IMG/VR virus record: IMGVR_UViG_3300027754_003435
DNA from: a virus
DNA length: 64,000 bases
Direction: 5' to 3' (one strand)
The notes beneath the pieces are model-generated. The model was not told the DNA's origin, made no database searches, and saw only the letters and a program-made list of their open reading frames with translations. This document shows positions 21,930 through 59,215 of the stretch, piece after piece; the stretch's first letter is position 1; every line of letters starts with the position of its first letter. The position numbers were made by a program, and so were the translations under genes.

Positions 21930-22718
21930 CTATGGTTCTAAATTTCTCATTAAACCAATAAGTTCTTCACTTATTGATAAATTTGTAAGATACGCAACAC
22001 CTTCTTTTTGCATAAGTTGTATTAATTTTTTACCAACTTGATTTTGCAATGGACTTTCCAATATACTTTTACCTTTTCTAAAAAGTTGAAGCATCAAATC
22101 AGAATATTCTTCTGAATCAGAACTGTATGATTTGTTATTATCAACTACATGAAAGTGTTGATTTCCAAAATAGCTTTGGAAAGCACCAATGTTATGTTGA
22201 ACTTCTTCCCATTTCTTTGCTACTATCATTGGTGGTACTTTTCTTGGACGCATTTGATTTCTTTGTTGAGCTATATCTAATGAAGTATTTACCATTACCA
22301 TGTCAACATCATATCCCAATGAATGTAACATACTTGAAACTCTCTGAATTTTAGGTAAATCTGCACCAGTTCCATCGATAAAAACAGGTAAACAACCGTT
22401 AACTATCTGAAAAAACTGATTTGAAGCCATTAATTTTGCTTTTTCTCTCTGAAACATCTGTGTAGAATATATATCAGAACCAGGGTCCATTATCAATGGA
22501 AGATTGTTTTTTTTCAATAAAAACTCGTAAAAAGTGTCAGAATTAACTACTTTTACCCCAAATGGACTGATTCCACCCGCTGTTGTACCTGTTAAAACCC
22601 CCAATACGAATCCTTTACCAGATCCAGGTCCACCGCCAAGAAACACTGCTTTGAATATGTTCTTGTCATGCACACTTTCTTTTAGTATACCTTCTATTAT
22701 TTTTTTTAGCTTAATCAT
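21930..22718 (-). CDS. P-loop kinase (zeta-toxin/AAA_33-like) with MIKL leader
   Basis: GGGPGSGKG Walker A, VFIDGTG, RNQMRPR lid; N-terminus MIKLKKIIEGILKE. Confidence 0.8.
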   Translation of the reverse strand: MIKLKKIIEGILKESVHDKNIFKAVFLGGGPGSGKGFVLGVLTGTTAGGISPFGVKVVNSDTFYEFLLKKNNLPLIMDPGSDIYSTQMFQREKAKLMASNQFFQIVNGCLPVFIDGTGADLPKIQRVSSMLHSLGYDVDMVMVNTSLDIAQQRNQMRPRKVPPMIVAKKWEEVQHNIGAFQSYFGNQHFHVVDNNKSYSSDSEEYSDLMLQLFRKGKSILESPLQNQVGKKLIQLMQKEGVAYLTNLSISEELIGLMRNLEP

Positions 22719-22748
22719 AGCTCTACCGATTGTTTTAGAATATTACGA

Positions 22749-22757
22749 ATAAATATA
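22749..22757 (-). promoter_or_regulatory. Putative late promoter TATATTTAT
   Basis: ATAAATATA on + strand, about 30 nt upstream of 22718. Confidence 0.55.
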
Positions 22758-22763
22758 AAAATT

Positions 22764-23654
22764 TTACTTTTTAATCATTTTTAGAAGTGTCAACTCTTTC
22801 TGTTTTGTCTCTAACATAACATCAATATCTAACCCATACGTGTTTGGTAATGTATGTATATAGTCTGAATGTGCTTGTGGTTTTATCTTATCGTCATTCT
22901 CATGAAGTGCTTTACTTTCTGAGTAGTGTACAACAGGTTTTACAGTACCCCACGTCGATGTGGCGAGTCTTAATGCATCTTCCTCTGATAAGTCACCCGT
23001 ACAGAATGTATGGTGGTGGTAATCGAATACAATAGGAATACCGATGGTGTTATGAATCTGCGTTAAGTCTTTAACGGAATACATACTTGCTTTATCATCG
23101 TTCTCTACTGTTAGTCTTAATTTAACAGAATCAGATAACATATCGAATTTACGGCAGAAGCGTTCCATAGTTGTTACTTTGTCACCGTATGTGCCGTTAC
23201 AATGTATGTTAATTTTGTTGAACGGTGTTTTAGATAAATTCATTAAATCAAATATTTTACCATGTGTTTCTAAATCAATAATAGTTCTTCTAACTACATC
23301 GTCATTTGGAGAACCTAACACATTGAATGGACCAGGATGGCAAGTGATACGTATATTGTTTTCTTGTACGAATTTACCGATACGTTGAAGTACAATACGG
23401 ATTAAATGAATTTGCGGTAAAGTTTCTAAGTCATACTCAGAAGCCCAAGGAAAAATATCAGATGAAACACGAAAGAAATAAATACCGTTCTTTACGTTCC
23501 ACTTGAGAATCTTTTCTAAATCAACAACATTTTTATATGCAAGTTCAGAAGCATAACTTACACCTTTAGTTAAAAAAGTTTTTTTAATCATAGAACGATT
23601 AGTGGTAATTTTTTCTTTACCCAATGTCATGTTAATACAAGCGTAGCCAAGCAT
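22764..23654 (-). CDS. uvsE: UV damage endonuclease
   Basis: LGYACIN, FFRVSSDIFP, HPGPFNVL, RLTVENDD, VFDYHHH, HYSES and AHSDY motifs. Confidence 0.95.
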   Translation of the reverse strand: MLGYACINMTLGKEKITTNRSMIKKTFLTKGVSYASELAYKNVVDLEKILKWNVKNGIYFFRVSSDIFPWASEYDLETLPQIHLIRIVLQRIGKFVQENNIRITCHPGPFNVLGSPNDDVVRRTIIDLETHGKIFDLMNLSKTPFNKINIHCNGTYGDKVTTMERFCRKFDMLSDSVKLRLTVENDDKASMYSVKDLTQIHNTIGIPIVFDYHHHTFCTGDLSEEDALRLATSTWGTVKPVVHYSESKALHENDDKIKPQAHSDYIHTLPNTYGLDIDVMLETKQKELTLLKMIKK

Positions 23655-23656
23655 AA

Positions 23657-23697
23657 AAAATCCGTATAAAGTTTTAATACAACAAGATACGGATTTT
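23657..23697. terminator. 11 bp inverted repeat between WYL and uvsE (terminator or operator)
   Basis: aaaatccgtat ... atacggatttt. Confidence 0.45.
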
Positions 23698-23698
23698 A

Positions 23699-24067
23699 TT
23701 AGAATTTTGCTATTGCTAATATGGTTTGAATTTGTCTATCACCACTTGAATTAAATCTTGAGTCTGGAACTTTATCAGCAGTTTTCTTACTTAATACATT
23801 TATATTACTAATCCGATCAACCCTAAGTAATTTCCAACCAGGAATCTGTGTTGTTGTTTTTCCAGTTGTTTGCCATACTCGTAAATATTTTTTACCATTG
23901 GTTAACCCAAAACAAACAGGAATAATTCCAGTTCGCCAACCAGGTGAGTTTTCTCTATCACCCTTATAATAAAGTGCTAATATTTTTTTATCATTAACAG
24001 CATTAACCAAAACAGAATCTTGAGGAGCTGCTTCAGTAAGTAGTAATATTTCGGTTAAACTTATCAT
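23699..24067 (-). CDS. Stand-alone WYL-domain protein with MISLTEILLLTE leader
   Basis: LYYKG...GWR...PVCFG...YLRVWQ...GWKLLRVDRISNI is a WYL pattern. Start moved to ATG 24067, just after TATATTTAT at 24072-24080. Confidence 0.75.
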   Translation of the reverse strand: MISLTEILLLTEAAPQDSVLVNAVNDKKILALYYKGDRENSPGWRTGIIPVCFGLTNGKKYLRVWQTTGKTTTQIPGWKLLRVDRISNINVLSKKTADKVPDSRFNSSGDRQIQTILAIAKF

Positions 24068-24155
24068 AACCATAAATATATAAAAATAAAAAACCCCCAA
24101 CCAAAGTTGGAGGTTATTTAGGGTATCATCCCTTTTCCCATTCCGTAGGAATTTT

Positions 24156-24707
24156 TTATGATTTTTTTCGTTCACATGGTAGTTGGCCAGTTAACTTCCA
24201 TTTATTAAAAATTACCAATTGTTCTTCAGTAAGTAAACCTTCAATCAAAGAAAGTGTTGTTTCATTGCATTTTTTCATATTAACTTGAAATGTAAGTTGT
24301 GTTTCTTTAGCAAGTTTACCATATTCTTTTCTAATGGATTCAACTTGCTGACGTACTAAGGAATCTTTTTCTAAACCTTTGTATTGAGCCAACTTTTCTG
24401 CTTGTTGTTTTCTCAATGATTCCATTGTTGTTTTTAATTTTAACTTACATTCTTTTTCACAAGTACGAGCTTCTGATAAAATAAATTTAATTTTATTCAT
24501 TTGCTCTTGTGAAAGATTCAAGCAAGGTAAAACTGCTTCTAACGGAACTCTTTTTTGCATTCCAATCGAATCTTTTTTTATTGAATCACGTAAATCAATC
24601 GGTGTTCTTTTTTCAAATGCAGTTGTATCTTCAACTTTTGTTAATTGTTCTTGACAACCAACAACCAATAATAAACTTAAAACCAAAATCTTCATATAGT
24701 TTTTCAT
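24156..24707 (-). CDS. Lipoprotein with Spy/CpxP-like LTxEQ motifs
   Basis: Lipobox-like LLLVVGC; LNLSQEQ and LLTEEQ; helical and Lys/Glu-rich. Confidence 0.65.
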   Translation of the reverse strand: MKNYMKILVLSLLLVVGCQEQLTKVEDTTAFEKRTPIDLRDSIKKDSIGMQKRVPLEAVLPCLNLSQEQMNKIKFILSEARTCEKECKLKLKTTMESLRKQQAEKLAQYKGLEKDSLVRQQVESIRKEYGKLAKETQLTFQVNMKKCNETTLSLIEGLLTEEQLVIFNKWKLTGQLPCERKKS

Positions 24708-24730
24708 AACTACTTCCTTTAAATAAAAAA

Positions 24731-25354
24731 TTAAAAATCAATTGCTGGATTTCCACTCATACTACCTGAGTATGTACTCGTATGCACTAAACGAATTGCA
24801 AGTCCCATCCCAAATGGTGTATTTATCTTAACAACATTATCGTTTGACCAATATAAACGAGTTGCAACTGCCGCTGCTGCTGAAGCTGTTGTTGCTGTCC
24901 AAAAATTTGCACTCCAACCAAAATCGTATTGTTCTGCATTTTCTTTCATATAACCATTTGGATTTCCACAAAAGTTACTTTCATTACTACCATTACCAGA
25001 ACGTTTATTAAGAGTTGACCAATTAATATTATTTTTTAATAAATTACCGGCTGCTTGTTGACCACCTTCTGCAGTAATCAATGTGTTCCAATCACTTTCA
25101 GTTGGAACTCTAAATCCTGTTGGAGCAATTGCTGCATGTGAACCAGATACGGCATACCAATTATACAATTTTCCGTATTCTTCTTCCATACCTTCGTCGA
25201 AATCATAGTAACACCAACCAGGTGTACCATTTTGAGAATATGCTTCCCATTGTTCTGAACTAGAAACTTCTGCGATGGCTGTGCCATCTTGAAAAGATTC
25301 TACTGCAAGATTTTCTTTAAACCAATATTGTGAACCTATTTGAACAATAGCCAT
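24731..25354 (-). CDS. FISUMP (Fibrobacter succinogenes major paralogous) domain protein
   Basis: VQIGSQYWFKENL, WCYY, YGKLYNWYAV and APTGFRVPTESDW motifs. Confidence 0.9.
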   Translation of the reverse strand: MAIVQIGSQYWFKENLAVESFQDGTAIAEVSSSEQWEAYSQNGTPGWCYYDFDEGMEEEYGKLYNWYAVSGSHAAIAPTGFRVPTESDWNTLITAEGGQQAAGNLLKNNINWSTLNKRSGNGSNESNFCGNPNGYMKENAEQYDFGWSANFWTATTASAAAAVATRLYWSNDNVVKINTPFGMGLAIRLVHTSTYSGSMSGNPAIDF

Positions 25355-29964: not shown

Positions 29965-30381
29965 ATGGAGCTTAAAAATATGAGTACGAGTATGAAAAAA
30001 TTAGCGTGTGAAGGAAACAATCCATTAAGTAAATATTATCACACAGATCCATGCGATCAATACGTTAAAGTTGCTGATAACGTAGTTAAGGTTATTTGTT
30101 GGAAATGTACTTCCAAAGGAATTCCAGCACCAACTAATGTAAACAAATCAAATGCAGCAAGTGGGTTTCTTCGTGGTTGGAAGTTTATGAAAGAATTTGT
30201 ACATCAGAACGGAACTGTTTATCATAAGGGAGTAGAGCAACCAAGTCTACGTGGTACACTTGAACCAACGCCATTCAAAACTTCTAAGTCACGTAAAGTA
30301 AAACCTACGTTGGATGATAAAATTCAAGAAGAGTACAACAAGAAATTAAAAAATAAAAAATCTAAATCTAAAAAATCATAA
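29965..30381 (+). CDS. Hypothetical protein with Cys cluster (possible Zn finger) and basic tail
   Basis: C...C...CWKC; Lys-rich C-terminus. Confidence 0.75.
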   Translation: MELKNMSTSMKKLACEGNNPLSKYYHTDPCDQYVKVADNVVKVICWKCTSKGIPAPTNVNKSNAASGFLRGWKFMKEFVHQNGTVYHKGVEQPSLRGTLEPTPFKTSKSRKVKPTLDDKIQEEYNKKLKNKKSKSKKS

Positions 30382-35303: not shown

Positions 35304-35375
35304 GGTCCCATCGACTAACGGTTAGGTCACTACCCTTTCAAGGTAGCTGCACGGGTTCAAATCCCGTTGGGACTA
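35304..35375 (+). tRNA. trnE: tRNA-Glu (anticodon TTC)
   Basis: Acceptor GGTCCCA/TGGGACT, anticodon arm CTACC-CTTTCAA-GGTAG, T-loop GGTTCAAATCC; CCA not encoded. Confidence 0.92.
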
Positions 35376-35410
35376 CACAATTTTATTCACAATAATATAT
35401 TAAATGTTTT

Positions 35411-36177: not shown

Positions 36178-36186
36178 TATATTTAT
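36178..36186 (+). promoter_or_regulatory. Putative late promoter TATATTTAT
   Basis: Exact motif about 37 nt upstream of 36223; the one + strand exact copy noted before a gene. Confidence 0.55.
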
Positions 36187-36222: not shown

Positions 36223-36690
36223 ATGAAAGATATGAAAAAAATGAAAGACCTTGTTAGTGAAGGTAGAGAAATGCAAAACAAATTAACAAAGTTGATTAAT
36301 GGGAAGTTAAATGAAGGTAATACAAACCAAGTAAACGAACGTGGTCAATACGCTTGGGGTATGGTTAAACCAGACTTAGACAGAACAAGTGGTTTGGTAT
36401 ACGCAGCAGACATTTCGTTTACATTAGAAGATATATTTGAATTGTATGACGCTTATACAAAAACTGTTAGAATGTTATCAGCGTTTGCTTCACATCATCA
36501 GGGTTCAATACACATTAATCCAATAATTGAAATTGATATTCCAAATGAAACAACAGCACACCAATTTACTGGTTCAGAAATTAAAGCTCTCTATCAATTT
36601 GCAATGGCAAATAAAGATGCAATAGTATCACGTCATGGAACAAGAACCATGAGTCAACCACAATCGCAAGCACCATTTGGGATGCGTTAA
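36223..36690 (+). CDS. Hypothetical protein, possible internal head protein
   Basis: N-terminal KMKDLVSE...KLNE resembles the shared leader; late-type motif upstream. Confidence 0.7.
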   Translation: MKDMKKMKDLVSEGREMQNKLTKLINGKLNEGNTNQVNERGQYAWGMVKPDLDRTSGLVYAADISFTLEDIFELYDAYTKTVRMLSAFASHHQGSIHINPIIEIDIPNETTAHQFTGSEIKALYQFAMANKDAIVSRHGTRTMSQPQSQAPFGMR

Positions 36691-37443: not shown

Positions 37444-38463
37444 ATGAGTGCAACTTTAGTTGAATATGTATGGCTTGATGGTTACACGCCAGAACCTACT
37501 CTTCGTAGTAAAATCAGAGTTTCCGATGGAGGTTCATCAGAACAATGGTCATTTGATGGTAGTTCTACTAAACAAGCGGAAGGAAACTTTTCAGATTGCA
37601 TTCTTAATCCAGTAAAACGCTATCATGGAACTAATAGAAATGATAAGATATTTGTTTTATGTGAAGTTCTTAACTCAGATAGAACACCACATGAATCGAA
37701 TGATAGACATAAACTGGATTTTTCCATATATTCCTCTTTAGATAATTCTGCGGAATCACCTTGGTTTGGATTTGAACAAGAATATTTTATACGGCAGGGA
37801 CATAAAAAAAACATATTAGGTTTTGAATCAAATTATTCAACAGAAAAACAAGGCAAATATTATTGTGGTGTTGGAGGACTTATATTTGGAAGACACTTAT
37901 CAGATGAACACCTTGAAATGTGTTTGAAATATGGTATAGGTATAGAAGGAACAAACGCTGAAGTTGCTGTTGGTCAATGGGAATATCAAATTTTCGGTAA
38001 AGATATTCTTACTGCATCGGACGATTTGTGGATGTCTAGGTATTTCTTGTTCAAATTGGCAGAAAAATATGGTTATGATATAGAATTACACCCTAAACCA
38101 CTACAAACTGGTGATTGGAACGGCTCTGGACTACATACAAACTTCTCAACCCCAAGAATGCGTGATGTTGGTGGTGATGAATACTTTAATAAAATATTCA
38201 AACAATTTGATAAAGATAAAGAAATACACATTGCTAACTACGGTTCTGACAACCATTTACGTTTAACTGGCAAGTTTGAAACACAAGATATAAACAAATT
38301 TACGTGGGGTATTGCAGATAGGGGTGCTTCAATACGTATACCAACAGGAACAGCGGAAAATTGGTGTGGATATTTAGAAGATAGAAGGCCAGCTTCAAAC
38401 GCTAATCCATATAAAGTTACTAAGGTAATATTGGATTCTATGTACGAAGTTGATAAAAAATAG
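37444..38463 (+). CDS. glnA: Glutamine synthetase, type II (GSII-like)
   Basis: EYVWLDG, WSFDGSST, WFGFEQEY, NAEVAVGQWEYQ, DWNGSGLHTNFS, RGASIRIP and YLEDRRPASNANPY motifs; 339 aa. Confidence 0.95.
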   Translation: MSATLVEYVWLDGYTPEPTLRSKIRVSDGGSSEQWSFDGSSTKQAEGNFSDCILNPVKRYHGTNRNDKIFVLCEVLNSDRTPHESNDRHKLDFSIYSSLDNSAESPWFGFEQEYFIRQGHKKNILGFESNYSTEKQGKYYCGVGGLIFGRHLSDEHLEMCLKYGIGIEGTNAEVAVGQWEYQIFGKDILTASDDLWMSRYFLFKLAEKYGYDIELHPKPLQTGDWNGSGLHTNFSTPRMRDVGGDEYFNKIFKQFDKDKEIHIANYGSDNHLRLTGKFETQDINKFTWGIADRGASIRIPTGTAENWCGYLEDRRPASNANPYKVTKVILDSMYEVDKK

Positions 38464-38528
38464 GGAGATAGTAATTCTCAGGGAAACGGACGCTCTTTTA
38501 CTTGGTTGTTGGGGCGTCCATTTTTATT

Positions 38529-39083
38529 TTAATTTAATTCACGCATATAATCAGCTAGTTTAATATTCCATTTAACGTCGGGATATTTCATCGATAACTG
38601 TTTCACAGCCATTACATTAGGTCTTGCATCATCAATAAAGAACACGTCATTGTACCCTTGCTGTATTTTTGATTCTATCCAATCTGCTTTAGCTTGTGGG
38701 TCGGCAGAACCTACACCTACCACTTCTATGTTATTTATACCGATTGTTTGTAAGAACTGTTTAATATCGTTTGCAGCAGCACCTTTACGAGCTGTTAATA
38801 CCGTTATACGTCTCATACCAGTTGCTACGTATAATTTTCCAAGTATATTAGTTACTGACTTAATCTCTTGTGGACTTATTACTTGATTAAACTCAGAAAA
38901 GTCCAAGTTATCACCTGGTTGCTCACGATATATGGCAAACTCAGCCGGAGTTAATTTACTCATATTACCATGTCTATCGGTTAAAATAACCATAGATTTA
39001 GTCGTTGCAAGTGTGTCATCGAAATCAAATACTCTTAATTTCTTAGCTTCTTGCTCTTCTAGTAGTTCAGTTAATGTTATCAT
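38529..39083 (-). CDS. HAD-superfamily phosphatase with MITLTELLEE leader
   Basis: VFDFDDTL (motif I), LTAR (motif II), FIDDARPNV (motif IV). Start moved to ATG 39083. Confidence 0.85.
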   Translation of the reverse strand: MITLTELLEEQEAKKLRVFDFDDTLATTKSMVILTDRHGNMSKLTPAEFAIYREQPGDNLDFSEFNQVISPQEIKSVTNILGKLYVATGMRRITVLTARKGAAANDIKQFLQTIGINNIEVVGVGSADPQAKADWIESKIQQGYNDVFFIDDARPNVMAVKQLSMKYPDVKWNIKLADYMRELN

Positions 39084-39137
39084 CTCGGTTTCTTCTCCCA
39101 ACCTATTGACTTTCTATATTGTTCGTAGTTATTCATT
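39077..39137. repeat. 61 bp direct repeat, copy 1
   Basis: 58/61 identical to 39701..39761. Confidence 0.95.
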
Positions 39138-39707
39138 GTCCAATCCTCCTGAAGTGCTTTTCATTGAGAGTATTTTTGTATTTAACGGATTGAATATAAC
39201 AATTTCTTTTTCGCCATTTCCTATAATTCCATTAATACCAATATCATCCATCATTTCTGATAATTGTTTATCACTTATTGGAAAAATTCTTAGAATTTTA
39301 TTATATAAATCTATACCGTTTTTAGAATCTTTTATGATATTATTAATGATAAATAACTTTTGCTCATTACTCATTCTTTCGCCTTTATTATCTACAATAT
39401 CATTATTAATACTAAACATATTTCTTACTTTATCTAAATTAGATTTACTTACCTTTTTATTATCAGATAAAAAATTTAAACGGTTTGGTATTTTTACGTT
39501 ATATACATAACCACCTTTTGCATAATGTGTAGCAAGATTTTTAATAGTTGTTAAATATATACCATAACCATATTCATCGCCACCCGTTTTTTTACCAACA
39601 TCTTTTTTTAAATTATCAAATTTATATGGTGAACCATGATAATAAATAATATCATTCATAATATTTTCGTTTAGATATTCTTTTAGTAGTTCTGATAATT
39701 TTATCAT
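39129..39707 (-). CDS. ADP-ribosyltransferase-like protein (ART-PolyVal-type pattern) with MIKLSELLKE leader
   Basis: YYHGS...YGYGIYLTT...ATHYA...EKEIVIFNP. Start ATG 39707 (alternative 39725). Confidence 0.65.
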   Translation of the reverse strand: MIKLSELLKEYLNENIMNDIIYYHGSPYKFDNLKKDVGKKTGGDEYGYGIYLTTIKNLATHYAKGGYVYNVKIPNRLNFLSDNKKVSKSNLDKVRNMFSINNDIVDNKGERMSNEQKLFIINNIIKDSKNGIDLYNKILRIFPISDKQLSEMMDDIGINGIIGNGEKEIVIFNPLNTKILSMKSTSGGLDNE

Positions 39708-39761
39708 CTTGGTTTCTTCTCCCATCCTATTGACTTTCGATATTGTTCGTAGTTATTCATT
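39701..39761. repeat. 61 bp direct repeat, copy 2
   Basis: Spans the 3' end of 39704..40648 and the start of 39129..39707. Confidence 0.95.
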
Positions 39762-40648
39762 ACCCAATTTACTATACTATTTGGATCATTATTGTATATT
39801 GCATTTGTTTGTATCAAGGGTTTTCCATCCTTTGAATGTATAGTATAAGTTTCCATTGCCTCATCAACAAACACAATATCTCTTGCGGTTTTACCATGAA
39901 ATATAACTTGAAATTCTTGATCTGAATGATGCCAACATCTTATGCCAGACGCACGGAATATTAAGAAAGTTCCATCACCGTACTTCAGTGCTTGGCCATC
40001 AACACCATATTTAGCAAAGTCTTCTGGTGTATAAGCAAAATTATACCCCTCACCTATCTTTTTACCTTGCAACCATGTTGTTAATCCTAATTTAGTTGGA
40101 TCCGCAATACCCTTAATAAAACCTTTTCTTGCCATCATCCGTCCGTCCATACGTGTTGTTCCATGAACTAACCATTGATTCTTTACCAATGTTGGTTCAT
40201 GTAAATAAAACCATGACGGTATGTCAGCTGGTTGTATACCAAAACCATCCATAAACGCCATAAACGATTGTTCTTCTGCATATATCTTGTCCATTAACCA
40301 ATCAACGATTGCACCATACGATACTGGATCTTTCTGTTTAAGTACATCCCATTTACGAAGCTCCAATGCTTGAGTATACAGTTGTATTTTAGGAACAGCG
40401 TTCGGATCCGCCCGTACGGGTTTATTTTGGTTGTGAATTTGAGGAGGGGTGAACCCAGGATTCGAGCGAAATTGGAATTTTGAATATAAATTTTGTGTTT
40501 TGATAAAATATTCATCAATTATTTGTTTATATCCAATCATACCGACTATTTCATCCGCCATTTGTTCTGGTGTAGAATCTAAATACTTCCATAATGTAAC
40601 AACATCGGTATCTACATATTCTTTTAGAAGGTCTTTTAGCTTAATCAT
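39704..40648 (-). CDS. ADP-ribosyltransferase-like protein (H-Y-E-type fold candidate) with MIKLKDLLKE leader
   Basis: LVHGTT...GF...GYNFAY...KYG...DQEFQVIF; homologous to 48573..49220. Confidence 0.5.
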   Translation of the reverse strand: MIKLKDLLKEYVDTDVVTLWKYLDSTPEQMADEIVGMIGYKQIIDEYFIKTQNLYSKFQFRSNPGFTPPQIHNQNKPVRADPNAVPKIQLYTQALELRKWDVLKQKDPVSYGAIVDWLMDKIYAEEQSFMAFMDGFGIQPADIPSWFYLHEPTLVKNQWLVHGTTRMDGRMMARKGFIKGIADPTKLGLTTWLQGKKIGEGYNFAYTPEDFAKYGVDGQALKYGDGTFLIFRASGIRCWHHSDQEFQVIFHGKTARDIVFVDEAMETYTIHSKDGKPLIQTNAIYNNDPNSIVNWVMNNYEQYRKSIGWEKKPR

Positions 40649-41279
40649 ATTTTTCCATATTATTTAAGTGAGAAGGTGAAGTGGCGAGTGAAGCAGCGGC
40701 ACCACCCAACCCCATACTACTCTTATTAATTGTGTCGTTGCTGTTCCCTACGATTTTCGGTTTAGAAATCACTTTATCATTAAATATCACTAAAATGTCA
40801 TCATTTACGTCATTTCTTACACGTAATCCGTCTATTCCACACGAAAGCAGGAAATCAGATATTTTCTTAGGTTCTCTAACTTTAAGTATTCTACCAATAA
40901 AGTCATAGAACTCAGGAATATCGTCAATTACCGTGTTCGGCCCCCATACTTGTACGTCCCATTTTTCTTCTAAATTAGGTGGTAATTCCACTCTATCTCG
41001 TATCATTCCATTATATATTTTACGTAATTGGTCTTTAGAAACCTTTGCCCACATAATATCAGCCATATGTGGTATGTTTACTTCCATTATAACCGCACCA
41101 AATGACTTAGCTCTTTCCCAATCTTTAATGAAATAAATACCCCATCCCCAATAAGAGTGTATTTTATCCCCACCTTTACCTACCTTATTATACGAGAATT
41201 TAGTCACAGGTTGAGCACTACCATGATACCATATACCGTCGTTAGCCATTTCTTTTAATATGTCTTTTAATTTTATCAT
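40641..41279 (-). CDS. ADP-ribosyltransferase-like protein (ART-PolyVal-type pattern) with MIKLKDILKE leader
   Basis: WYHGS...YWGWGIYFIK...AKSFG...GIDG...DDILVIFND; paralog of 39129..39707. Start 41279 or 41285. Confidence 0.65.
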   Translation of the reverse strand: MIKLKDILKEMANDGIWYHGSAQPVTKFSYNKVGKGGDKIHSYWGWGIYFIKDWERAKSFGAVIMEVNIPHMADIMWAKVSKDQLRKIYNGMIRDRVELPPNLEEKWDVQVWGPNTVIDDIPEFYDFIGRILKVREPKKISDFLLSCGIDGLRVRNDVNDDILVIFNDKVISKPKIVGNSNDTINKSSMGLGGAAASLATSPSHLNNMEKYD

Positions 41280-41281
41280 TT

Positions 41282-41644
41282 TCATTTTCGCATACGAAGT
41301 AAGGACAAATCGATAGTATCCCGAACATCTCGCTTTACAGCACCACGTTTTCCACCTCTAGTATGACCAACACTCACTTCTTTTCGTGTATGTGTGTCTT
41401 CGTGATCACTAGTTATGTTTCTATTGTATAAGAACGCCATTTCATACATTTGTTCATGTAGGAGTTTAACCTCGCCATTAACGTCTTTATACGATGTAAT
41501 AGTAGTATCTACTGTTTGTTGTAGAGTCTGAATTGTCATTTTAGCGTAGTAATAGAAGCCGATCAGGGTGGAAAGCACCCCAATTATCATTCCTAATTGT
41601 GGCAGGGTTATTGTGAACTTCTTATTTGTTATATCTTCTGGCAC
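41282..41644 (-). CDS. Single-pass membrane coiled-coil protein
   Basis: TM LGMIIGVLSTLIGFYYYA; GTG start; first gene of the late-type operon. Confidence 0.7.
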   Translation of the reverse strand: MPEDITNKKFTITLPQLGMIIGVLSTLIGFYYYAKMTIQTLQQTVDTTITSYKDVNGEVKLLHEQMYEMAFLYNRNITSDHEDTHTRKEVSVGHTRGGKRGAVKRDVRDTIDLSLLRMRK

Positions 41645-41692
41645 TTTATTTCTCTCTTTACACTATAGTTTTACACTACTATTAACATATAT

Positions 41693-41720
41693 ATAAATAT
41701 ATAAATACTATAATATTTAT
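41693..41720. promoter_or_regulatory. Divergent late-type motifs (TATATTTAT on -, AATATTTAT on +)
   Basis: ataaatata at 41693-41701; aatatttat at 41712-41720. Confidence 0.5.
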
Positions 41721-41756
41721 ACCTATATACATTTTAATGATTATCGAGAATGAGTT

Positions 41757-41912
41757 ATGAGATTGAATGAAGACATTACAGTAAATGGCAATTTAAGTCA
41801 GATAGATAATTCACCCCTATACATGATAAACGACCTTATCTTCACGAGTGCTGGAGAATGGGAGAAATTAGTCCTTGTGGTGAATAAGCCCGCAACAGAA
41901 ATAGATGAGTAA
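41757..41912 (+). CDS. Possible 51 aa peptide
   Basis: MRLNEDITVNGNLSQIDNSPLYMINDLIFTSAGEWEKLVLVVNKPATEIDE; late-type motif upstream; no homology support. Confidence 0.4.
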   Translation: MRLNEDITVNGNLSQIDNSPLYMINDLIFTSAGEWEKLVLVVNKPATEIDE

Positions 41913-42046
41913 TATTTACCCTTATATGTTGAACAAGAGTAAATATTTGGTATTTTTACTTGGACACTATGTCCAAGTTATTGTCCAAGTCACACAAACC
42001 AATGCGGATTTTAAAGTGGTCGAATTCCACCACTTTACTTTACCAT

Positions 42047-42115
42047 TTAATGCGGGATATATCATTCATTAAGTCTGTTTTATGGTGTTAATGCGTGATA
42101 TAACATTCATTAAGT
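42047..42115. repeat. Two 28 bp direct repeats (period 41), each TTAATG-N14-CATTAA
   Basis: ttaatgcgggatatatcattcattaagt and ttaatgcgtgatataacattcattaagt. Confidence 0.85.
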
Positions 42116-42436
42116 GGGTGTATGCCGAAGGGTATAAATTCATTTAAGTTTTTCTATAGTAAAAAAATTGACCTCGATAAAAAAACGGATGAGCGCGCCA
42201 CCCCTCACCCCTACTCCCCCTGGCCATTTACGTTAAATTGGCCCACCCCCACCCCAGTGATGATTATTGTATAAGCCCGTTTATTTACAATAACTTAGCT
42301 TCCCCCACCTACCCCTATATCCCTATTATTATTTCATTTGGTTATTAAATTATCTTTCGTATTTTTGCTGTCAGATTAAACCTGATATAGTTACTATGAA
42401 AGATAAATTTATTATATGTACCGATGAAATAAATGA

Positions 42437-42468
42437 TTTGGTTAGTATCTAATAATTCCGTATATTTG
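42437..42468 (+). promoter_or_regulatory. Promoter TTTG-N20-TATATTTG with no ORF downstream
   Basis: Exact consensus inside the non-coding region. Confidence 0.6.
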
Positions 42469-42527
42469 TAGTATAAGAAATGGGGAAGGAGATAACGGGT
42501 ATATATAGAAACCGATTGAAACAATCG

Positions 42528-42559
42528 TTTGGAAGTTATCTCAAAATTTCTTATATTTG
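42528..42559 (+). promoter_or_regulatory. Second tandem promoter TTTG-N20-TATATTTG with no ORF downstream
   Basis: Exact consensus 91 bp after the first. Confidence 0.6.
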
Positions 42560-43424
42560 TATTATAAATGATTGGTTGATATTTGAACACAGTAGAATGG
42601 AAGTAGACAGTAAGTCTCGTTAGTATACTATAGTATATACTATATAGAAGCAGTAAGTTCTGAAGAGTTCTATTTCATTTCCCAATTTAAACGAGGGTAA
42701 CTATATAGTAGTTATATAGTATCCATATAGTATATACTTAACGGTAATACCAAGGGTAAATAAATCAAGGGTAATTACTTAGGGCAACCCTAATGATGTA
42801 CAGTTAGTATAGTATATACTATATACCAATAGAGAATAATGTGCGATGAAGTTACGGTTATAATCCGTCTAGTAGTCAATATCATTATTCTCTTTTTTTA
42901 TTTCAACTCTATGCATGCGTACACTTTTGGATACCCTAACACCTCATACATGGAAAACTAGTAATATAAGGCGTGCTGTTCAATGAGACAAGTGCGGCTT
43001 CCCACATTACAAATATAACGTATATACATCCCATAATGAAATTAAATAAATAATTTGTTTAAAATGATAAATAAATTATATCGGAATAACCAAAGGATTT
43101 ATTTAATTAATAATTTTTATATTACAAAAATGCATATTTCATTAGGAAATTACAATGCGCGTAAGCCGTTGAGCTATATAGAGTTACAGAGATGGCAAAT
43201 GGAAATGAGCGGGCTCACTCAGATTCACCACATCTTCCCACTTCAACCCACACCACACTATATATTACCCACAGTATAGATATACATTAACTGGACATTA
43301 ACTATACACATACTATGTAATAATATTTTATTATATGGTAACATGAATGGAGTGAAATTGTACAATAATAGTTATAGGAGTATATTGTGGGTAACATTAT
43401 CATCACTTATATAGTATATAAACA

Positions 43425-43456
43425 TTTGGAGTATTAGAATGGAATCATTATATTTG
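43425..43456 (+). promoter_or_regulatory. Promoter TTTG-N20-TATATTTG for the TonB-receptor operon
   Basis: Exact consensus about 180 nt upstream of 43637. Confidence 0.65.
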
Positions 43457-43636
43457 CATTGGGAACGTATAGTATTCCTTATACTTACTATTGTATTCTC
43501 TATAGTATTCAATATTAGTTATAAGAAAGATTGTTTAAGTTGTATTGAAGTAGTAGTAATAGTATATACTATAGTACTGATATTATTTAGTGTACCGTTC
43601 GTTTTTTTGAAATGATTTTAGTTTGAGGAATTTGAT

Positions 43637-47964: not shown

Positions 47965-48444
47965 TTACATCATTCTAAAATAGTGACCGTTTGATTCGGA
48001 ATAATCATACATAAGTTCTTTAGCAGTGCTTTCCCAATCAATATGAATATAACCTGGTAAGTCGTTCGGTATCTCTCCAAGTTGTTCACATAAGTCTCGT
48101 GCAAACTCTGCATCACTAGCAAATTGACCAGAGTATGCTTCATCTACATTGCAATATTGAACATCACAATTACGTGCCGCTTCCCAAATATCCATGTCAT
48201 CATAGTGACTATTAGGATAATTCTCAATGAAATCTTCCAAGTCATCAGGACTTAAAAAGTATGGTAAATCAGAGTAATCAATTTGAATATCATTCTTATC
48301 AATCAATTCATAATCCTCAATACTATTGTTTTCTGCAATTTCTAAGAATGCATCTTTAATATCATCTGAGGTGAAACAGCTATCGTCAATAGTAATCGAT
48401 GCTGTAAATAATGATGGTTTGTGACTTACTGATACTTCAAACAT
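47965..48444 (-). CDS. ardA: ArdA-like antirestriction DNA mimic
   Basis: Highly acidic; AYSGQFASDAEFA...YIHIDWESTAKELM...NGHYFR C-terminal ArdA pattern; early promoter-leader upstream. Confidence 0.8.
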   Translation of the reverse strand: MFEVSVSHKPSLFTASITIDDSCFTSDDIKDAFLEIAENNSIEDYELIDKNDIQIDYSDLPYFLSPDDLEDFIENYPNSHYDDMDIWEAARNCDVQYCNVDEAYSGQFASDAEFARDLCEQLGEIPNDLPGYIHIDWESTAKELMYDYSESNGHYFRMM

Positions 48445-48572: not shown

Positions 48573-49220
48573 TTATATTTTCCCCACGCTTTTTAAAAAT
48601 GTTGATAATTTTACATCAGTTTCAATTAAATTCATATTTTTATCATAAACATCCCAAATCCATTCCTTCGTGTTTTTGCTATCAATTTTCACATTTACAA
48701 TACAAACCACATCAATACCATGTGTCACATCAAAAACTATTTGAAATTGTTTATCACCAGTATTGTAAACTTTACAAAAATCATTAGATTTAAAAACAAT
48801 ACCCCATCCACCATATAAAAAATCTTTTTGGTATCTACTATCAATCTTTTTGTTAGTTAAATCAAATGCAAAACCGAAATTACCATCAATAATTTGTTCC
48901 TTACTTTTTCTTGTTTTAGTAAATGAAGAATAATATGCACCAACCCCACGAAAACCATTTTGTAAAATAGATGTTATATTTTCTTTGGTTGTTGAATGAA
49001 ATAACAATGTGTTTGTTGATAATTTTATTGCTGAATTTGGTTTGTATGAAAATCCTCTCTGTGGAGTTTTTTCCAAATTATTAACAACATTAACAAACTC
49101 ATCAATTGTGTTTATTTTCGTAACATCTTTTTTTGAAACACTTTCTTTTAAAATTTGTTGTTCATTCAAAACCTCTCGTATTGATAACATGTCTTTGAGT
49201 TTAATTCTTTTGTTTTTCAT
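48573..49220 (-). CDS. ADP-ribosyltransferase-like protein, homolog of 39704..40648, with IKLKD...ILKE leader
   Basis: LLFHSTT...GF...GFAF...LYG...DKQFQIVF. Confidence 0.5.
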   Translation of the reverse strand: MKNKRIKLKDMLSIREVLNEQQILKESVSKKDVTKINTIDEFVNVVNNLEKTPQRGFSYKPNSAIKLSTNTLLFHSTTKENITSILQNGFRGVGAYYSSFTKTRKSKEQIIDGNFGFAFDLTNKKIDSRYQKDFLYGGWGIVFKSNDFCKVYNTGDKQFQIVFDVTHGIDVVCIVNVKIDSKNTKEWIWDVYDKNMNLIETDVKLSTFLKSVGKI

Positions 49221-50506: not shown

Positions 50507-50737
50507 TTACTTATATATTGTTATTAGTGAAGTTAAAAGGTTTCCCCTGCCAACTATCGTGCCTATATGATCAAATGTTTTATCTGTTTTCGGATTGTAT
50601 ATACCCAATTTTCTACCTTGTCTATCTCTTAGTATATGCATACCAGTTGACAAAATTTCTAACGTACCAAGTGGAACACCACGTCTGTCACGTATGTAAT
50701 CTCGTCTTTCAAACAATATGTCCATTAGTTTAATCAT
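50507..50737 (-). CDS. Small protein with MIKLMDILFE leader
   Basis: 76 aa; CATATTTAT variant at 50742-50750 immediately upstream. Confidence 0.75.
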   Translation of the reverse strand: MIKLMDILFERRDYIRDRRGVPLGTLEILSTGMHILRDRQGRKLGIYNPKTDKTFDHIGTIVGRGNLLTSLITIYK

Positions 50738-50760
50738 ACATATAAATATGATAAAATAAA

Positions 50761-50793: not shown

Positions 50794-52766
<1,973 letters not shown>

Positions 52767-55981: not shown

Positions 55982-56020
55982 ATTATATTCCTTTATATTT
56001 CATCTACTAATATACTAAAT

Positions 56021-56055: not shown

Positions 56056-56061
56056 CTCATA

Positions 56062-56448
56062 TTATCCGTTTACAGATTTTAAAGATTTCACGTAGTCTGG
56101 GCCGTATACATTGAAAGAAGCAGGCGCACCTTTCTTCTCACCAATCGTTACACATATTGAACCACGGGAGATAGCAGTGGGTCTACTGAATGAAGCGGGT
56201 TTAAGTAAGTCACCTGCACAATGTTTATGGCCATTGATAGAACCATCCTCAAGAGCTATGAATCCCCAAGCAGAGGCAACATTACCACTCTTATTAACAC
56301 ACACAAGTTTAGCATATTTTTTACCAAATTTAACTTCTATGTGTTCACGTAAATGTTCGGGAAATGGTTGTAAGCCAAACGCAGTATCATAGTGTTCCTT
56401 ACGTAGTTGCTCTAATATTTCAACGAATTTTTTAATTTCTCTTAACAT
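56062..56448 (-). CDS. Early phage protein
   Basis: 128 aa; KFGKKYAKL...AWGFI...GDLLKPASF..P; promoter-leader upstream. Confidence 0.8.
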   Translation of the reverse strand: MLREIKKFVEILEQLRKEHYDTAFGLQPFPEHLREHIEVKFGKKYAKLVCVNKSGNVASAWGFIALEDGSINGHKHCAGDLLKPASFSRPTAISRGSICVTIGEKKGAPASFNVYGPDYVKSLKSVNG

Positions 56449-56462
56449 AACTTTTGTTCCTT

Positions 56463-56517
56463 TTGGTTGTTCTTAATCTTACATTACAAATATACGGAAT
56501 TATCTTCTAATATCAAA
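56463..56517 (-). promoter_or_regulatory. Promoter TTTG-N19-TATATTTG plus conserved leader
   Basis: Reverse complement tatatttg-taatgtaagattaagaacaaccaa. Confidence 0.8.
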
Positions 56518-56520
56518 TCA

Positions 56521-56733
56521 TTATTTTTCAAGAATAACATAATCTCCAAAATATCTATCAAAGACTTGAAGAAGATTTTCATAATTACCAGCCTTCATTT
56601 CATTTGTGATTTCATTCGGATTAAGGCCTAATTGTTTTGCGATATTGTTTGCTGTTCCAAGTAGAAAATAAGCATTTCCTTGAGGACCTGTTAAATCAAT
56701 AACTAATGGACCATTCGTTTTCTTTCTTATCAT
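56521..56733 (-). CDS. Small early phage protein
   Basis: IDLTGPQGNAYFLLG...GNYENLLQVFDRYFG; start moved to ATG 56733. Confidence 0.8.
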   Translation of the reverse strand: MIRKKTNGPLVIDLTGPQGNAYFLLGTANNIAKQLGLNPNEITNEMKAGNYENLLQVFDRYFGDYVILEK

Positions 56734-56746
56734 AACATTTTCCTTT

Positions 56747-56800
56747 TTGGTTGTTTTTAATCTTACATACAAATATACGAAATTTTTTGGATATAACAAA
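56747..56800 (-). promoter_or_regulatory. Promoter TTTG-N19-TATATTTG plus conserved leader
   Basis: Reverse complement tatatttg-tatgtaagattaaaaacaaccaa. Confidence 0.8.
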
Positions 56801-56801
56801 A

Positions 56802-56972
56802 TTATCTGGTACACAAACCTGCATCAATCAGGTCAGTTGCAGTTCTACCATAGAAGCCCTGTAATCCCCAAATATGTCCACTATCTATTAGTGTTTGAAA
56901 TGATTGAATATAAAGTTCTTCTGTACATTCATTATTACATTCAATGTTCATAATTGCATCAATTATTTCCAT
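56802..56972 (-). CDS. 56 aa early phage protein (below track cutoff)
   Basis: MEIIDAIMNIECNNECTEELYIQSFQTLIDSGHIWGLQGFYGRTATDLIDAGLCTR; behind a promoter-leader element. Confidence 0.8.
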   Translation of the reverse strand: MEIIDAIMNIECNNECTEELYIQSFQTLIDSGHIWGLQGFYGRTATDLIDAGLCTR

Positions 56973-56986
56973 GATATTTTTTCCTT

Positions 56987-57033
56987 ATTGGTTGTTCTTA
57001 ATTGGTTGTTCTTAATCTTACATTACAAATATA
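56987..57033 (-). promoter_or_regulatory. TATATTTG promoter plus leader carrying a 14 bp tandem duplication
   Basis: attggttgttctta occurs twice (56987-57000, 57001-57014). Confidence 0.75.
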
Positions 57034-57059
57034 CGGAATTATTCGTTAATATCCTAAAA

Positions 57060-57155
57060 TTATCCGATAACATCAAACATCATAAAAAAGTAAAGTACAC
57101 AATAAAATAATATTGCCATACCAATACCCATTGCTAAATCCTTAATCTTGCTCAT
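57060..57155 (-). CDS. 31 aa membrane peptide (below track cutoff)
   Basis: MSKIKDLAMGIGMAILFYCVLYFFMMFDVIG; AAGGA upstream. Confidence 0.5.
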   Translation of the reverse strand: MSKIKDLAMGIGMAILFYCVLYFFMMFDVIG

Positions 57156-57176
57156 ACCCAAATCCTTATATATAAA

Positions 57177-57395
57177 TTACTTAGAAATATATTCTGAATT
57201 ATAAACACGAGGAGCAGATTGAACTACTTCCTCTACCAACGACTTACGTGAAGCTGCTTGAAGAACTCTCAACTTTTTATTTAAGTCATTAGTGTTAATC
57301 AAGTTACCTAACACATGGTTCTGATAACAGATAACCAAAGTTATTACAACTCCAAGAGTTAAACCAAGTGTAAAGATATTAAATGCGTTTTTCAT
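57177..57395 (-). CDS. Small membrane-anchored early protein
   Basis: TM IFTLGLTLGVVITLVICY; TATATTTG at 57426-57433. Confidence 0.7.
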   Translation of the reverse strand: MKNAFNIFTLGLTLGVVITLVICYQNHVLGNLINTNDLNKKLRVLQAASRKSLVEEVVQSAPRVYNSEYISK

Positions 57396-57425
57396 CGTTT
57401 CCTAATAGTGTTAAACATCAACACA

Positions 57426-57523
57426 CAAATATACGATTTTTTCCGTTCACAACCAACTAAAAAAATAACTTTGGTATTTCAAATAAATTGATTATATTTG
57501 TAATGTAAGATTAAGAACAACCA
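57426..57523. promoter_or_regulatory. Back-to-back divergent promoters; the + one is TTTG-N19-TATATTTG plus full leader
   Basis: caaatata at 57426-57433; tttg at 57470-57473, tatatttg at 57493-57500, then taatgtaagattaagaacaaccaa. Confidence 0.8.
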
Positions 57524-57538
57524 AAAGGAAAATAAATT

Positions 57539-57730
57539 ATGAAAAGAGTTGGAGAAAAGGAATTTGACGTAGTTGTTAGCGGTATTGAAGAAGGTGAATT
57601 TGGTCCAGAAAAAGCAACAGAAATTGTTACGGTAGTTGCTAACTCTCCCAAGAATGCGATAAAAAGAGCAGTTGGTGTTTCAAACTTAATAAACCCAGAG
57701 TTTGTTTCTTTTATTTCAAATTTCCAATAA
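57539..57730 (+). CDS. Small early protein
   Basis: 63 aa between a promoter-leader element and a terminator. Confidence 0.8.
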   Translation: MKRVGEKEFDVVVSGIEEGEFGPEKATEIVTVVANSPKNAIKRAVGVSNLINPEFVSFISNFQ

Positions 57731-57739
57731 TAGATAAAA

Positions 57740-57772
57740 AAAGAAAGCCTCACTAATTGTGAGGCTTTCTTT
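57740..57772. terminator. Bidirectional terminator
   Basis: AAAGAAAGCCTCAC-TAATT-GTGAGGCTTTCTTT between convergent genes. Confidence 0.85.
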
Positions 57773-57787
57773 ATATGTTTTAATTTC

Positions 57788-59215
57788 TTATTGTAATCGA
57801 GCGTCTGCCAACGCTTCCGCTAACTCACCCATCAATTGTTTGAGGAATGGTATGTAATCTGCTCCTCTACCTGAACCAATGAAATTTAATCCAGATATGT
57901 TTGTAATATCACGATGCCCACCTGAGCCTTTTACTATAACATCATATACTGTTGTTGTTATACCATTGAGTATTGATTTTTGCTTTGATGAAAGTAATTG
58001 ATATTGTTTACCTGCAATATCTTTTACCATATTTTGAAATCCTGGACTCTTCGGTAAATTCATAGCAACCTCACCAAACAAAGCCATGAAGTCATCCATA
58101 GTGAAACCAATGGATTCTGTACTTCCTTTTTTTATATCCATTTCCATCTTTCTCTTAACATCACCCATTGTAAGTTGCATTGCTTGAAGTTCTGATTTGT
58201 GCTTATTCAATATACCCATCGCTAACTCACCCAAGTTAATTGGATTTGCACCTTTCTTGAATGGATTCTTAGATGCTTGTACCAATCCCATTGGCCAACC
58301 AATTACAAGGTACTCAGCAGTTGGGTTCATCTTGAATGGCGTGTATCTATCGTATCCACCTTTAGTCATTGTACCACCACCGTATTGAACTAAGCAAGTT
58401 CCAAACATTGCATATTGACCGTTCCCGAGTGTTTGTATTTCTCGTGGGCTTGTTATTTGTTTCATCTTTAGAGCGGGTGCTTGTGAAGCAAGGTATGATG
58501 CTGTTTTAGCAGGTAAATCTGCCCATGATAAACCACGTGCTGTAACTTCTTGTTTAATTACATTGTAGATAGAAACAAGTGAAGGACGTGCTTTCATTAC
58601 TAACGCTTCTAAGAAGCCAGGTTTGTTCTTGAATGCAAGAAGAACTTTATTAACTACCAATCCCATTGCTAATCTATTTGGTACAGCAGACATAGTTGGA
58701 TCGAACTCAAATACTGAACGCATTACTTGGTCTGGATTAATACCTTGTGAAGCAAAGTCAGCGGAATCAACTGTTGATATAATTTGAATATCTTGTGCAG
58801 GAAACAAATCAGTTGGTGAAATTTCCTGAGACATCGCTGCAACATTTGAAGGTGCGTGTTTGAATGCAGCAGATGTAGTTGGAGCAACACCTGCTTGTGA
58901 TTGATGGTGATCGGTATGAATGTGTACCATTGGTTTACCATGAGCAAAGTCAACGATAACAACTAATAAACCAGGTTCTGGTTTTTGAACTGCAAATTCC
59001 ATACCACCATACTGAATTTTTTCACATTTTACTAACTTAACACCATATTTTTCTAAGTATGCTTTCATACCGATTGCAGTTGTTACACCGTCTAAATCCA
59101 TGTGAAAGTATATCAAAGCCTTTTTTCTCGTTGCTGTTAATGCGTTAATGTTTCGGATTCCTGTTTCTGTAAGCGTCTGCTTTGCATCTGTCAACAGGTC
59201 TTTTAATTTTATCAT
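57788..59215 (-). CDS. DHH/DHHA1-family phosphoesterase with MIKLKDLL leader
   Basis: FHMDLDG, IVDF, TDHH and C-terminal GSGGH motifs. Confidence 0.8.
   Translation of the reverse strand: MIKLKDLLTDAKQTLTETGIRNINALTATRKKALIYFHMDLDGVTTAIGMKAYLEKYGVKLVKCEKIQYGGMEFAVQKPEPGLLVVIVDFAHGKPMVHIHTDHHQSQAGVAPTTSAAFKHAPSNVAAMSQEISPTDLFPAQDIQIISTVDSADFASQGINPDQVMRSVFEFDPTMSAVPNRLAMGLVVNKVLLAFKNKPGFLEALVMKARPSLVSIYNVIKQEVTARGLSWADLPAKTASYLASQAPALKMKQITSPREIQTLGNGQYAMFGTCLVQYGGGTMTKGGYDRYTPFKMNPTAEYLVIGWPMGLVQASKNPFKKGANPINLGELAMGILNKHKSELQAMQLTMGDVKRKMEMDIKKGSTESIGFTMDDFMALFGEVAMNLPKSPGFQNMVKDIAGKQYQLLSSKQKSILNGITTTVYDVIVKGSGGHRDITNISGLNFIGSGRGADYIPFLKQLMGELAEALADARLQ

Follow-up and report, generated by a model that had tools for sequence, protein, structure and literature searches.

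A short leader peptide recurs at the N-termini of nine proteins encoded in a 64,000-nucleotide (nt) stretch of viral DNA (the window; IMG/VR record IMGVR_UViG_3300027754_003435), and this shared leader is real and lies far beyond chance. Judged from sequence and from analogy with phage T4, it is likely a T4-type capsid-targeting and prohead-protease tag, marking an expanded, enzyme-rich set of proteins that would be packaged in the phage head and probably injected into the host. A preliminary description of the window had proposed such a role for "nine unrelated proteins". Computational tests favor the capsid-targeting and protease part of that proposal, while the unrelatedness of the nine turned out to be overstated.

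The window corresponds to bases 107,483-171,482 of one viral contig of 177,312 bp (32% G+C), which is rated complete by CheckV. The named relatives of this phage (Microcystis phage Mel-JY01, the Flavobacterium 'immuto' phages, and Rhodothermus RM378) are all distant, and a blastn search of window positions 38000-42000 against cultured phages gave no match. Because the early-type promoters are of the Bacteroidota TAnnTTTG form and the closest contigs were binned with Flavobacteriaceae, the host is probably a flavobacterium.

A shared leader on proteins of different kinds

All nine genes are open minus-strand frames with the N-termini that had been claimed for them (Table 1; proteins are named below by the lower coordinate of their gene). 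Eight open from ATG with MI[K/S/T]L...[L/I]xE, and these are the only open reading frame (ORF) starts of this form in the 177,312-bp genome, which holds about 200 ORFs. In the ninth, 48573-49220, the segment IKLKDML begins at residue 6, five residues into the protein, and alignment with the closest homologues places it as a 9-residue insertion into an older, different leader. Across the tagged proteins of this phage, leader length ranges from 10 to 26 residues. The leader keeps the register of the T4 capsid-targeting sequence (CTS), with L4, L/I7, L8, and E10; in T4, targeting depends on residues 4 and 7 and processing on residues 8 and 10, the gp21 protease cutting after L/I-x-E (PMC9026906). 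The corresponding pattern, M..h..hh.[ED], was found about nine times at real N-termini versus about one expected. With a position-specific scoring matrix (PSSM) built solely from the leaders of other contigs (score threshold 9.4), 8 of 339 N-terminal methionine sites in this genome reached the threshold versus 3 of 46,083 internal sites, an N-terminal enrichment of about 360-fold. At least three more tagged genes lie beyond the window (Table 1). The weaker versions of the leader suggested earlier at 36223, 10809, and 59510 found no support (PSSM ≤4.2).

At least seven different kinds of protein body stand behind this one leader, and this much of the claim of unrelatedness holds. The 39129 and 40641 proteins, however, are paralogues (blastp E 1e-8), the 48573 and 39704 proteins are distant relatives (BLAST E 0.002), and these four probably share an ADP-ribosyltransferase (ART) fold, as judged from profile matches and structure models; "nine unrelated proteins" is therefore too strong. 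Each tagged protein has at most one recognizable domain, and the Pfam domain matches start after the leader. The 21930 protein matches Pfam Zeta_toxin above the cutoff (4.8e-08, from residue 23) as well as phrog_12810 (2e-33), and its homologue on IMG/VR contig L031 carries the canonical leader. The phosphatase of the HAD superfamily (38529) matches Pfam DUF2608 above the cutoff (1.3e-05) and phrog_415, a polynucleotide kinase/phosphatase family (7e-10), and has tagged homologues in contigs L122 and L168. The WYL and DHH labels of the preliminary description are more tentative: the 23699 protein has no Pfam or PHROG match and a language-model feature score of 0.92 to viral WYL clusters (Atlas), which serves as a lead only, and the 57788 protein gives a below-cutoff match to Pfam DHH (0.0014) and an Atlas structural template-modeling (TM) score of 0.52 to a DHH-family exonuclease cluster. 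PDB sequence searches with the 57788, 39704, and 48573 proteins and with the A2 profile returned nothing significant.

The assignment of ART folds to the 39704 and 48573 proteins comes largely from AlphaFold2 (AF2) models. The model of the 39704 protein, computed from a 38-sequence alignment, has a mean predicted local distance difference test (pLDDT) score of 84.6 and a predicted TM score (pTM) of 0.81; residues 1-10 fall below 50, and from about residue 11 the body lies at 86-97. With VIA-align, its C-terminal domain (residues ~156-310) gave best Z scores of 4.2-5.0, which are weak, and nearly all of the matches were ART toxins or Tpt1. The same model gave no Foldseek row against PDB at E ≤1e-3, and Pfam searches with all 38 members of the family yielded nothing meaningful. 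The model of the 48573 protein has a pLDDT of 69.6, and its top ~30 Foldseek rows were all ART folds (best E 5e-3, probabilities 0.8-0.99).

Selection on the peptide and turnover of cassettes

No leader position is restricted in its codons: all synonymous ones occur, with three for Ile at position 2 and five for Leu at position 4, for instance, and leader DNA is only 65-77% identical between neighboring cassettes. Past Glu10, conservation falls away sharply, and the residue at position 11 is mostly S, A, E, T, or G. Given this free codon variation, the stop at Glu10, the low pLDDT of residues 1-10, and domain matches that begin after the leader, the leader is a flexible N-terminal extension under selection as a peptide.

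The family of the 39704 protein follows this junction across lineages. A word-based IMG/VR protein search recovered 381 homologues, and a related-locus search of IMG/VR with the same protein returned nothing. Within the family, the leader varies in sequence and length by lineage, but the conserved body is always immediately preceded by [L/I]-x-E; the glutamate at the junction, Glu10, shows no variation among 38 sequences whose identity to the window protein is 33-88%. The tagged kinase has homologues in Pelagibacter phage HTVC008M and Methylophilales phage Melnitz, and these likewise carry different 8-9-residue extensions that end in [I/L]-x-E at exactly the same junction. The MIKLKD leader itself was searched for in T4, HTVC008M, and Melnitz and is absent from all three. 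Two contigs with distant homologues, L157 and L158, have loose, degenerate leaders only.

The leader also appears to mark a site of gene gain and loss. Two copies of a 90-nt direct repeat (90% identity) flank the 39129 cassette, each combining leader codons with the last 18 codons or 3' end of a 39704-type gene (Table 1). In a close relative from Lake Baikal (contig L168), the DNA on both sides is 83-92% identical, a single repeat copy is present, and the 39129 ART cassette is missing. In two other syntenic relatives, cargo content and order differ behind the same small hydrophobic protein; an equivalent of this protein (41282-41644, which has no family match) stands ahead of the cargo cluster in relatives L159 and L160.

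Distribution in viruses and association with the head protease

IMG/VR was searched with a degenerate DNA pattern encoding the ten leader residues, and a slightly looser peptide rule was used to call tagged proteins. The exact peptide pattern was found on at least 119 contigs, with nearly all matches at ORF starts, and the motif MIKLKD appears in none of the papers searched. The loci fetched held at least 163 distinct tagged proteins, often in tandem clusters and falling into at least 75 families without BLAST similarity past residue 12. When representatives of 75 families were aligned, M1, I2, K3, L4, and E10 were the only conserved positions, and across 155 distinct leaders L4, L/I7, and L8 were near-invariant and E10 invariant. 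Pfam names a minority of these proteins, including NUDIX, RNase T-type exonuclease, Zeta_toxin, HAD/NT5C, phage tail lysozyme, M78 and M48 peptidase, helix-turn-helix (HTH), sigma-70 region 4, and Tpt1/KptA families.

In 596 Gb of bacterial and archaeal genomes, the same pattern was found in eight stretches only. Five of these are low-GC, multi-tag contigs in bins of metagenome-assembled or single-amplified genomes (SAGs), evidently phage DNA. The near-absence of the leader from cellular genomes therefore excludes a generic artefact of A/T-rich gene starts. A tblastn search with the tagged protein of a Prochlorococcus SAG contig against cultured phages gave no match; the cultured Microcystis phage Mel-JY01 (PP395634) carries two leader genes, at 60923 and 62733.

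Four complete uncultured genomes bearing the leader held 11, 3, 6, and 3 matches, and the reversed-pattern control gave 0. Peptidase_S77 and Gp23 occur in all four, and Peptidase_S77 was also found in 4 of 5 further partial contigs (8 of 9 long contigs in all). Each genome has its own preferred variant of the leader, common to its unrelated proteins; in one 296-kb genome, for example, nine clustered tagged genes end in ...LLLE. In genome G002, the most frequent tagged family has its place within the head module, adjacent to the protease gene. A tag that is uniform within a genome and drifts between lineages is what co-evolution with the phage's own assembly machinery would predict.

Head module and promoter classes

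A T4-type head module lies outside the window in the same genome. It includes a Gp23 major capsid protein (9.5e-77), a prohead protease of the gp21 family (Peptidase_S77, 1e-29), a T4-like portal (Portal_T4, 2.7e-72), and a T4-type large terminase (TerL); the genome also encodes a contractile sheath. Just ahead of the Gp23 domain, where a maturation site is expected, the capsid proteins of this phage and of four relatives all have a conserved ...QL[L/I/V]xE with Ala or Ser next, which fits a similar protease specificity. A 448-amino-acid (aa) ORF adjoining the capsid gene on its downstream side has no Gp23 match, and no gp24 homologue bearing the leader was identified in this genome. A scaffold-like protein (genome 68473-69492, minus strand) opens its conserved N-terminal helix with an LLKE motif; its middle part is long and acidic, and its C-terminus carries a conserved ...KLAG[L/I]K peptide common to relatives. 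This C-terminal peptide was considered as a second address tag and rejected, as it occurs in this genome at the scaffold C-terminus only.

The motif most enriched upstream of genes in this phage is TATATTTAT/TATATTTGT. Its G form (TATATTTGT, TAnnTTTG, the Bacteroidota -7 type) precedes genes for the clamp loader, sliding clamp, GroES, a MoxR ATPase, and an anti-restriction-like protein; in the window it lies upstream of 52449-52766, 47965-48444, and 29965-30381. The A form (TAT[AT]TTTAT) is found ahead of the genes for tail sheath and scaffold, of very large structural ORFs, and of the ORF adjoining the capsid gene. It also lies upstream of seven tagged genes; among the tagged genes behind it are those for the kinase, the WYL-like protein, four proteins in the run from 41644 to 38529, and a tagged S-adenosylmethionine (SAM) lyase encoded outside the window. 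No G form was found upstream of any tagged gene. Directly upstream of the 23699-24067 gene are a hairpin with a T-run and a TATATTTAT box (24072-24080), and the 50507-50737 gene has its own upstream hairpin with a T-run and a CATATTTAT box (50742-50750). The two promoter classes may represent a switch from host-sigma to phage-late transcription.

The tagged SAM lyase matches PF23780 above the cutoff (1.1e-10) and is encoded alone among replication genes behind a late-type box. A SAM lyase made late would be useful mainly if carried into the next cell, making it a candidate pre-loaded anti-restriction enzyme. In contrast, an untagged 159-aa protein in the window (47965-48444, minus strand), which matches PHROG 'anti-restriction protein' families (5e-07), stands behind an early-type box.

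Proposed role of the leader and alternative explanations

If the leader is a capsid-targeting tag, the tagged genes would be transcribed together with the structural genes, and the N-terminal peptide of about ten residues would direct each protein to the scaffolding core of the prohead during assembly. The gp21-family Peptidase_S77 would then cut after the Glu of the terminal [L/I]-x-E, so that the mature enzyme is released within the head. When the next cell is infected, the enzymes would exit with the DNA and could act on host targets before any phage gene expression. Leader codons and the 3' end of the upstream gene could double as homology for the gain and loss of cargo cassettes. The predicted cargo comprises the four ART-fold proteins, the Zeta-like kinase, the HAD phosphatase, the DHH-like phosphoesterase, the SAM lyase, and small proteins without an assigned function, and it resembles known packaged effectors such as T4 Alt.

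An alternative that we regard as unlikely is that the leader loads proteins into the prohead core and is removed there, but that the cargo acts inside the capsid or in its assembly (in DNA condensation, as core parts, or as proteins degraded on maturation) and is not injected. In T4, the protease motif and similar N-termini stand on the pure assembly proteins gp22, gp67, gp68, and gp24, and the scaffold of the present phage also opens with such a motif. Moreover, the tagged family most often seen in IMG/VR consists of a small, non-enzymatic protein whose gene lies within the head module. However, most of the identifiable cargo consists of enzymes of cytoplasmic substrates (ART, SAM lyase, NUDIX, kinase, phosphatases, and exonuclease) with no obvious capsid role, and T4 Alt and IPI provide precedents for ejection.

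Less probable again is that the peptide signals something else, as an inhibitory propeptide of toxic enzymes, a helix for chaperonin or membrane targeting, or a degradation tag. Because many of the cargo proteins (ART folds and the Zeta-like kinase) could harm the cell that makes them, masking by a propeptide would be plausible, and the genome encodes both GroEL and GroES. Yet it is improbable that active sites so diverse would be masked by ten unstructured residues lying outside the fold, the register matches the targeting and processing positions of T4, and among five leader-rich genomes the S77 protease is present in all and a phage GroEL is missing from two. Finally, a conserved 5' segment that acts as a DNA homology arm for cassette exchange or as an mRNA or translation-initiation element, with a functionless peptide, would account for the 90-nt repeat and for A/T-rich leader codons of a kind common at gene starts in low-GC genomes, but is largely excluded by the freely varying synonymous codons, the low DNA identity between leaders, the invariance of Glu10, and the near-absence of the motif from cellular genomes, AT-rich ones included.

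Several points nevertheless weigh against a capsid-targeting tag. To our knowledge, the binding partner of the leader is not known even in T4. The late timing of the tagged genes is read solely from a promoter-like motif that differs by one base from the early form, and two tagged genes (57788 and 48573) have neither the A nor the G form upstream. The IMG/VR set was fetched by the leader motif itself and thus cannot show how many cargo proteins are without it. Several leaders also depart from the ten-residue form; that of the kinase has Gly10, with its LKE site at residues 12-14, and that of the DHH-like protein has Asp10, with a TLTE site at residues 14-17; in the T4 CTS, Asp10 blocks processing and leaves targeting intact (PMC9026906).

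Taking both sides together, the capsid-targeting reading remains the one we favor. A broader version of it might equally prove right or wrong: a large clade of uncultured aquatic T4-type phages would share a portable, conserved ten-residue tag that labels every protein they inject, and recombination at the tag would exchange cassettes and so bring in new weapons.

Tagged genes and neighboring features

The positions of the tagged genes and associated features are given in Table 1.

Table 1. Tagged genes, promoter-like boxes, repeats, and associated features. Positions are those of the window unless marked as genome positions; PSSM, leader score.
Feature	Position	Strand	Description
Tagged gene 1	21930..22718	-	Zeta-toxin-like P-loop kinase, 262 aa; 14-aa leader ending ILKE
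Tagged gene 2	23699..24067	-	122 aa, tentatively WYL-like (weak evidence); leader ends LTE; PSSM 2.9
Tagged gene 3	38529..39083	-	HAD-superfamily phosphatase, 184 aa; DxDxT motif from residue 19
Tagged gene 4	39129..39707	-	ART-PolyVal/DUF3990-like fold, probably ART, 192 aa; Pfam ART-PolyVal 1.2e-05, below cutoff
Tagged gene 5	39704..40648	-	314 aa, large uncharacterized viral family; helical N-domain, beta-rich C-domain
Tagged gene 6	40641..41279	-	ART-PolyVal-like, 212 aa; Pfam ART-PolyVal 2.8e-04, below cutoff; PSSM 28.5
Tagged gene 7	48573..49220	-	Probable ART-fold protein, 215 aa; long leader with inserted IKLKDML, ending ILKE; Pfam PARP 0.0023, weak
Tagged gene 8	50507..50737	-	76 aa, no Pfam or PHROG match; downstream of GroEL; PSSM 22.9
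Tagged gene 9	57788..59215	-	DHH/DHHA1-like phosphoesterase, 475 aa; PSSM 18.4
Tagged SAM lyase	genome 21865-22494		Outside the window; PF23780; late-type box
Tagged 163-aa protein	genome 11367-11858		Outside the window
Tagged 178-aa protein	genome 64796-65332		Outside the window; next to the 448-aa ORF that lies downstream of the capsid gene
Doubtful weak version	36223..36690	+	155 aa, PSSM 4.2, no family; late-type box 36178-36186
Untagged gene	41282..41644	-	Small hydrophobic protein; first in a tightly packed five-gene run, 41644 to 38529 (overlapping genes)
A-form box TATATTTAT	22749..22757	-	39 nt upstream of the kinase gene
A-form box TATATTTAT	41693..41701	-	57 nt upstream of the five-gene run
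A-form box	61438-61446
90-nt direct repeat, copy 1	39055..39144		Leader codons and last 18 codons of a 39704-type gene; flanks the 39129 cassette
90-nt direct repeat, copy 2	39679..39768		Where the 3' end of 39704 meets the leader of 39129

Other features of the window and genome were noted alongside the tagged genes. A gene for a UV-damage endonuclease, UvdE (22764-23654, minus strand; Pfam 1.1e-61), sits between two tagged genes, and a single tRNA-Glu (anticodon UUC; 35304-35376, plus strand) is the sole RNA family found in the window. The 2-kb stretch at 41645-43636 holds tiny ORFs only. A perfect palindrome of 16 nt (TATAGTATATACTATA) recurs there in several copies (42629, 42808, and near 43559), along with two units of 64 nt, each with an early-type promoter box at its end; from its sequence, the stretch could be a regulatory or origin region. 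The phage GroEL (50794-52437; Cpn60, 5.7e-81) and GroES (52449-52766; phrog_3188) are both encoded on the minus strand in the window. GroEL was considered as the partner of the leader and rejected, as two of the five leader-rich complete genomes are without it; of the four related complete genomes, two encode it.

Two further genes were observed outside the window. Inside the head module, a 75-aa ORF (genome 70784-71011, minus strand) resembles by eye a gene annotated as RpsU (ribosomal protein S21) at the same place in Mel-JY01. A 763-aa protein (genome 80367-82658, minus strand) has no Pfam match; it has a leader-like start ending in LIKE, followed by what appears by eye to be an HxGH-type nucleotidyltransferase motif.

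Implications

The concept of capsid targeting is already known from T4; what is new here is a distinct tag, its breadth (at least 75 families in many uncultured genomes), a cargo of enzymatic character, and the evidence for cassettes. If the proposed role is correct, a pre-loaded arsenal for counter-defense or host takeover, spanning those families and including ART folds, SAM lyase, NUDIX, exonuclease, kinase, and phosphatases, could be read directly from sequence. Should the tag work as in T4, a simple sequence rule would list, clade-wide, the proteins delivered ahead of gene expression, effectors that are otherwise found only through virion proteomics of cultured phages. Dozens of uncharacterized families would thereby become candidate anti-defense or takeover enzymes, and a late-made, pre-loaded SAM lyase would blunt SAM-dependent restriction at entry. 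The T4 protein-packaging toolkit would also be extended to phages of Bacteroidota and other aquatic hosts, and the loci described here would exemplify how effectors can be exchanged as modules at a leader they have in common.

Comparison with T4 and other known systems

The closest parallel is the T4 CTS. The first 10 residues of IPIII suffice for packaging in T4, and the internal proteins of T-even phages are diverse, with the CTS alone conserved (PMC9026906, PMC3012670, PMC5694885, and a T4 vaccine preprint). The present leader is likewise an N-terminal peptide of about ten residues on otherwise diverse proteins, with hydrophobic residues at 4 and 7, L/I8, and Glu10, and this phage too has a gp21-family protease, a gp22-like scaffold, and a gp23 capsid protein. 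However, the sequence of the leader is distinct, it is borne by many enzymes and not by small basic proteins as in T4, and, as a putative tag, it marks about ten or more cargo genes per genome and at least 75 families across the clade. The closest sequence match is the 10-residue propeptide of T4 gp24 (T4 record), which has 5 identical and 4 conservative residues among the 10 positions and ends in L-x-E, although gp24 is a shell protein and not internal cargo. T4 gp22 and gp21 likewise open with [L/I]-x-E motifs (T4 record). The gain and loss of cassettes at the leader also has a parallel, as recombinational shuffling of T-even internal-protein genes at the conserved CTS has been described (Repoila et al. 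1994, as cited in PMC3012670).

The giant phages phiKZ and SPN3US provide a second comparison. Their diverged gp21-like protease cuts after Glu, and their propeptides are thought to target proteins into the prohead (PMC5694885). Most propeptides of their ejection proteins exceed 100 residues, in contrast to the far shorter leaders described here.

With respect to cargo, T4 Alt is an ADP-ribosyltransferase that is packaged, trimmed by gp21 at ITE-6 and LTE-619, and injected (PMC5694885; PMC5512222). It thus offers the example of a late ART loaded into the head, and four of the tagged proteins here are probably ART-fold. Alt, however, is a single 76-kDa protein with a 6-residue N-terminal propeptide and a C-terminal propeptide, whereas the putative ARTs of this phage are 190-315 aa long and appear to be ART-PolyVal/DUF3990-like or PARP-like, not members of the Alt family. 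The polyvalent proteins (Iyer et al. 2017, PMC5512222) similarly form an injected toolkit of disparate enzymatic domains and may have the ART-PolyVal family in common with the present cargo, whose matches to it are below the Pfam cutoff. In those proteins, 2-15 domains are joined in one polypeptide; here, the corresponding activities would be carried by separate small proteins, each with its own tag.

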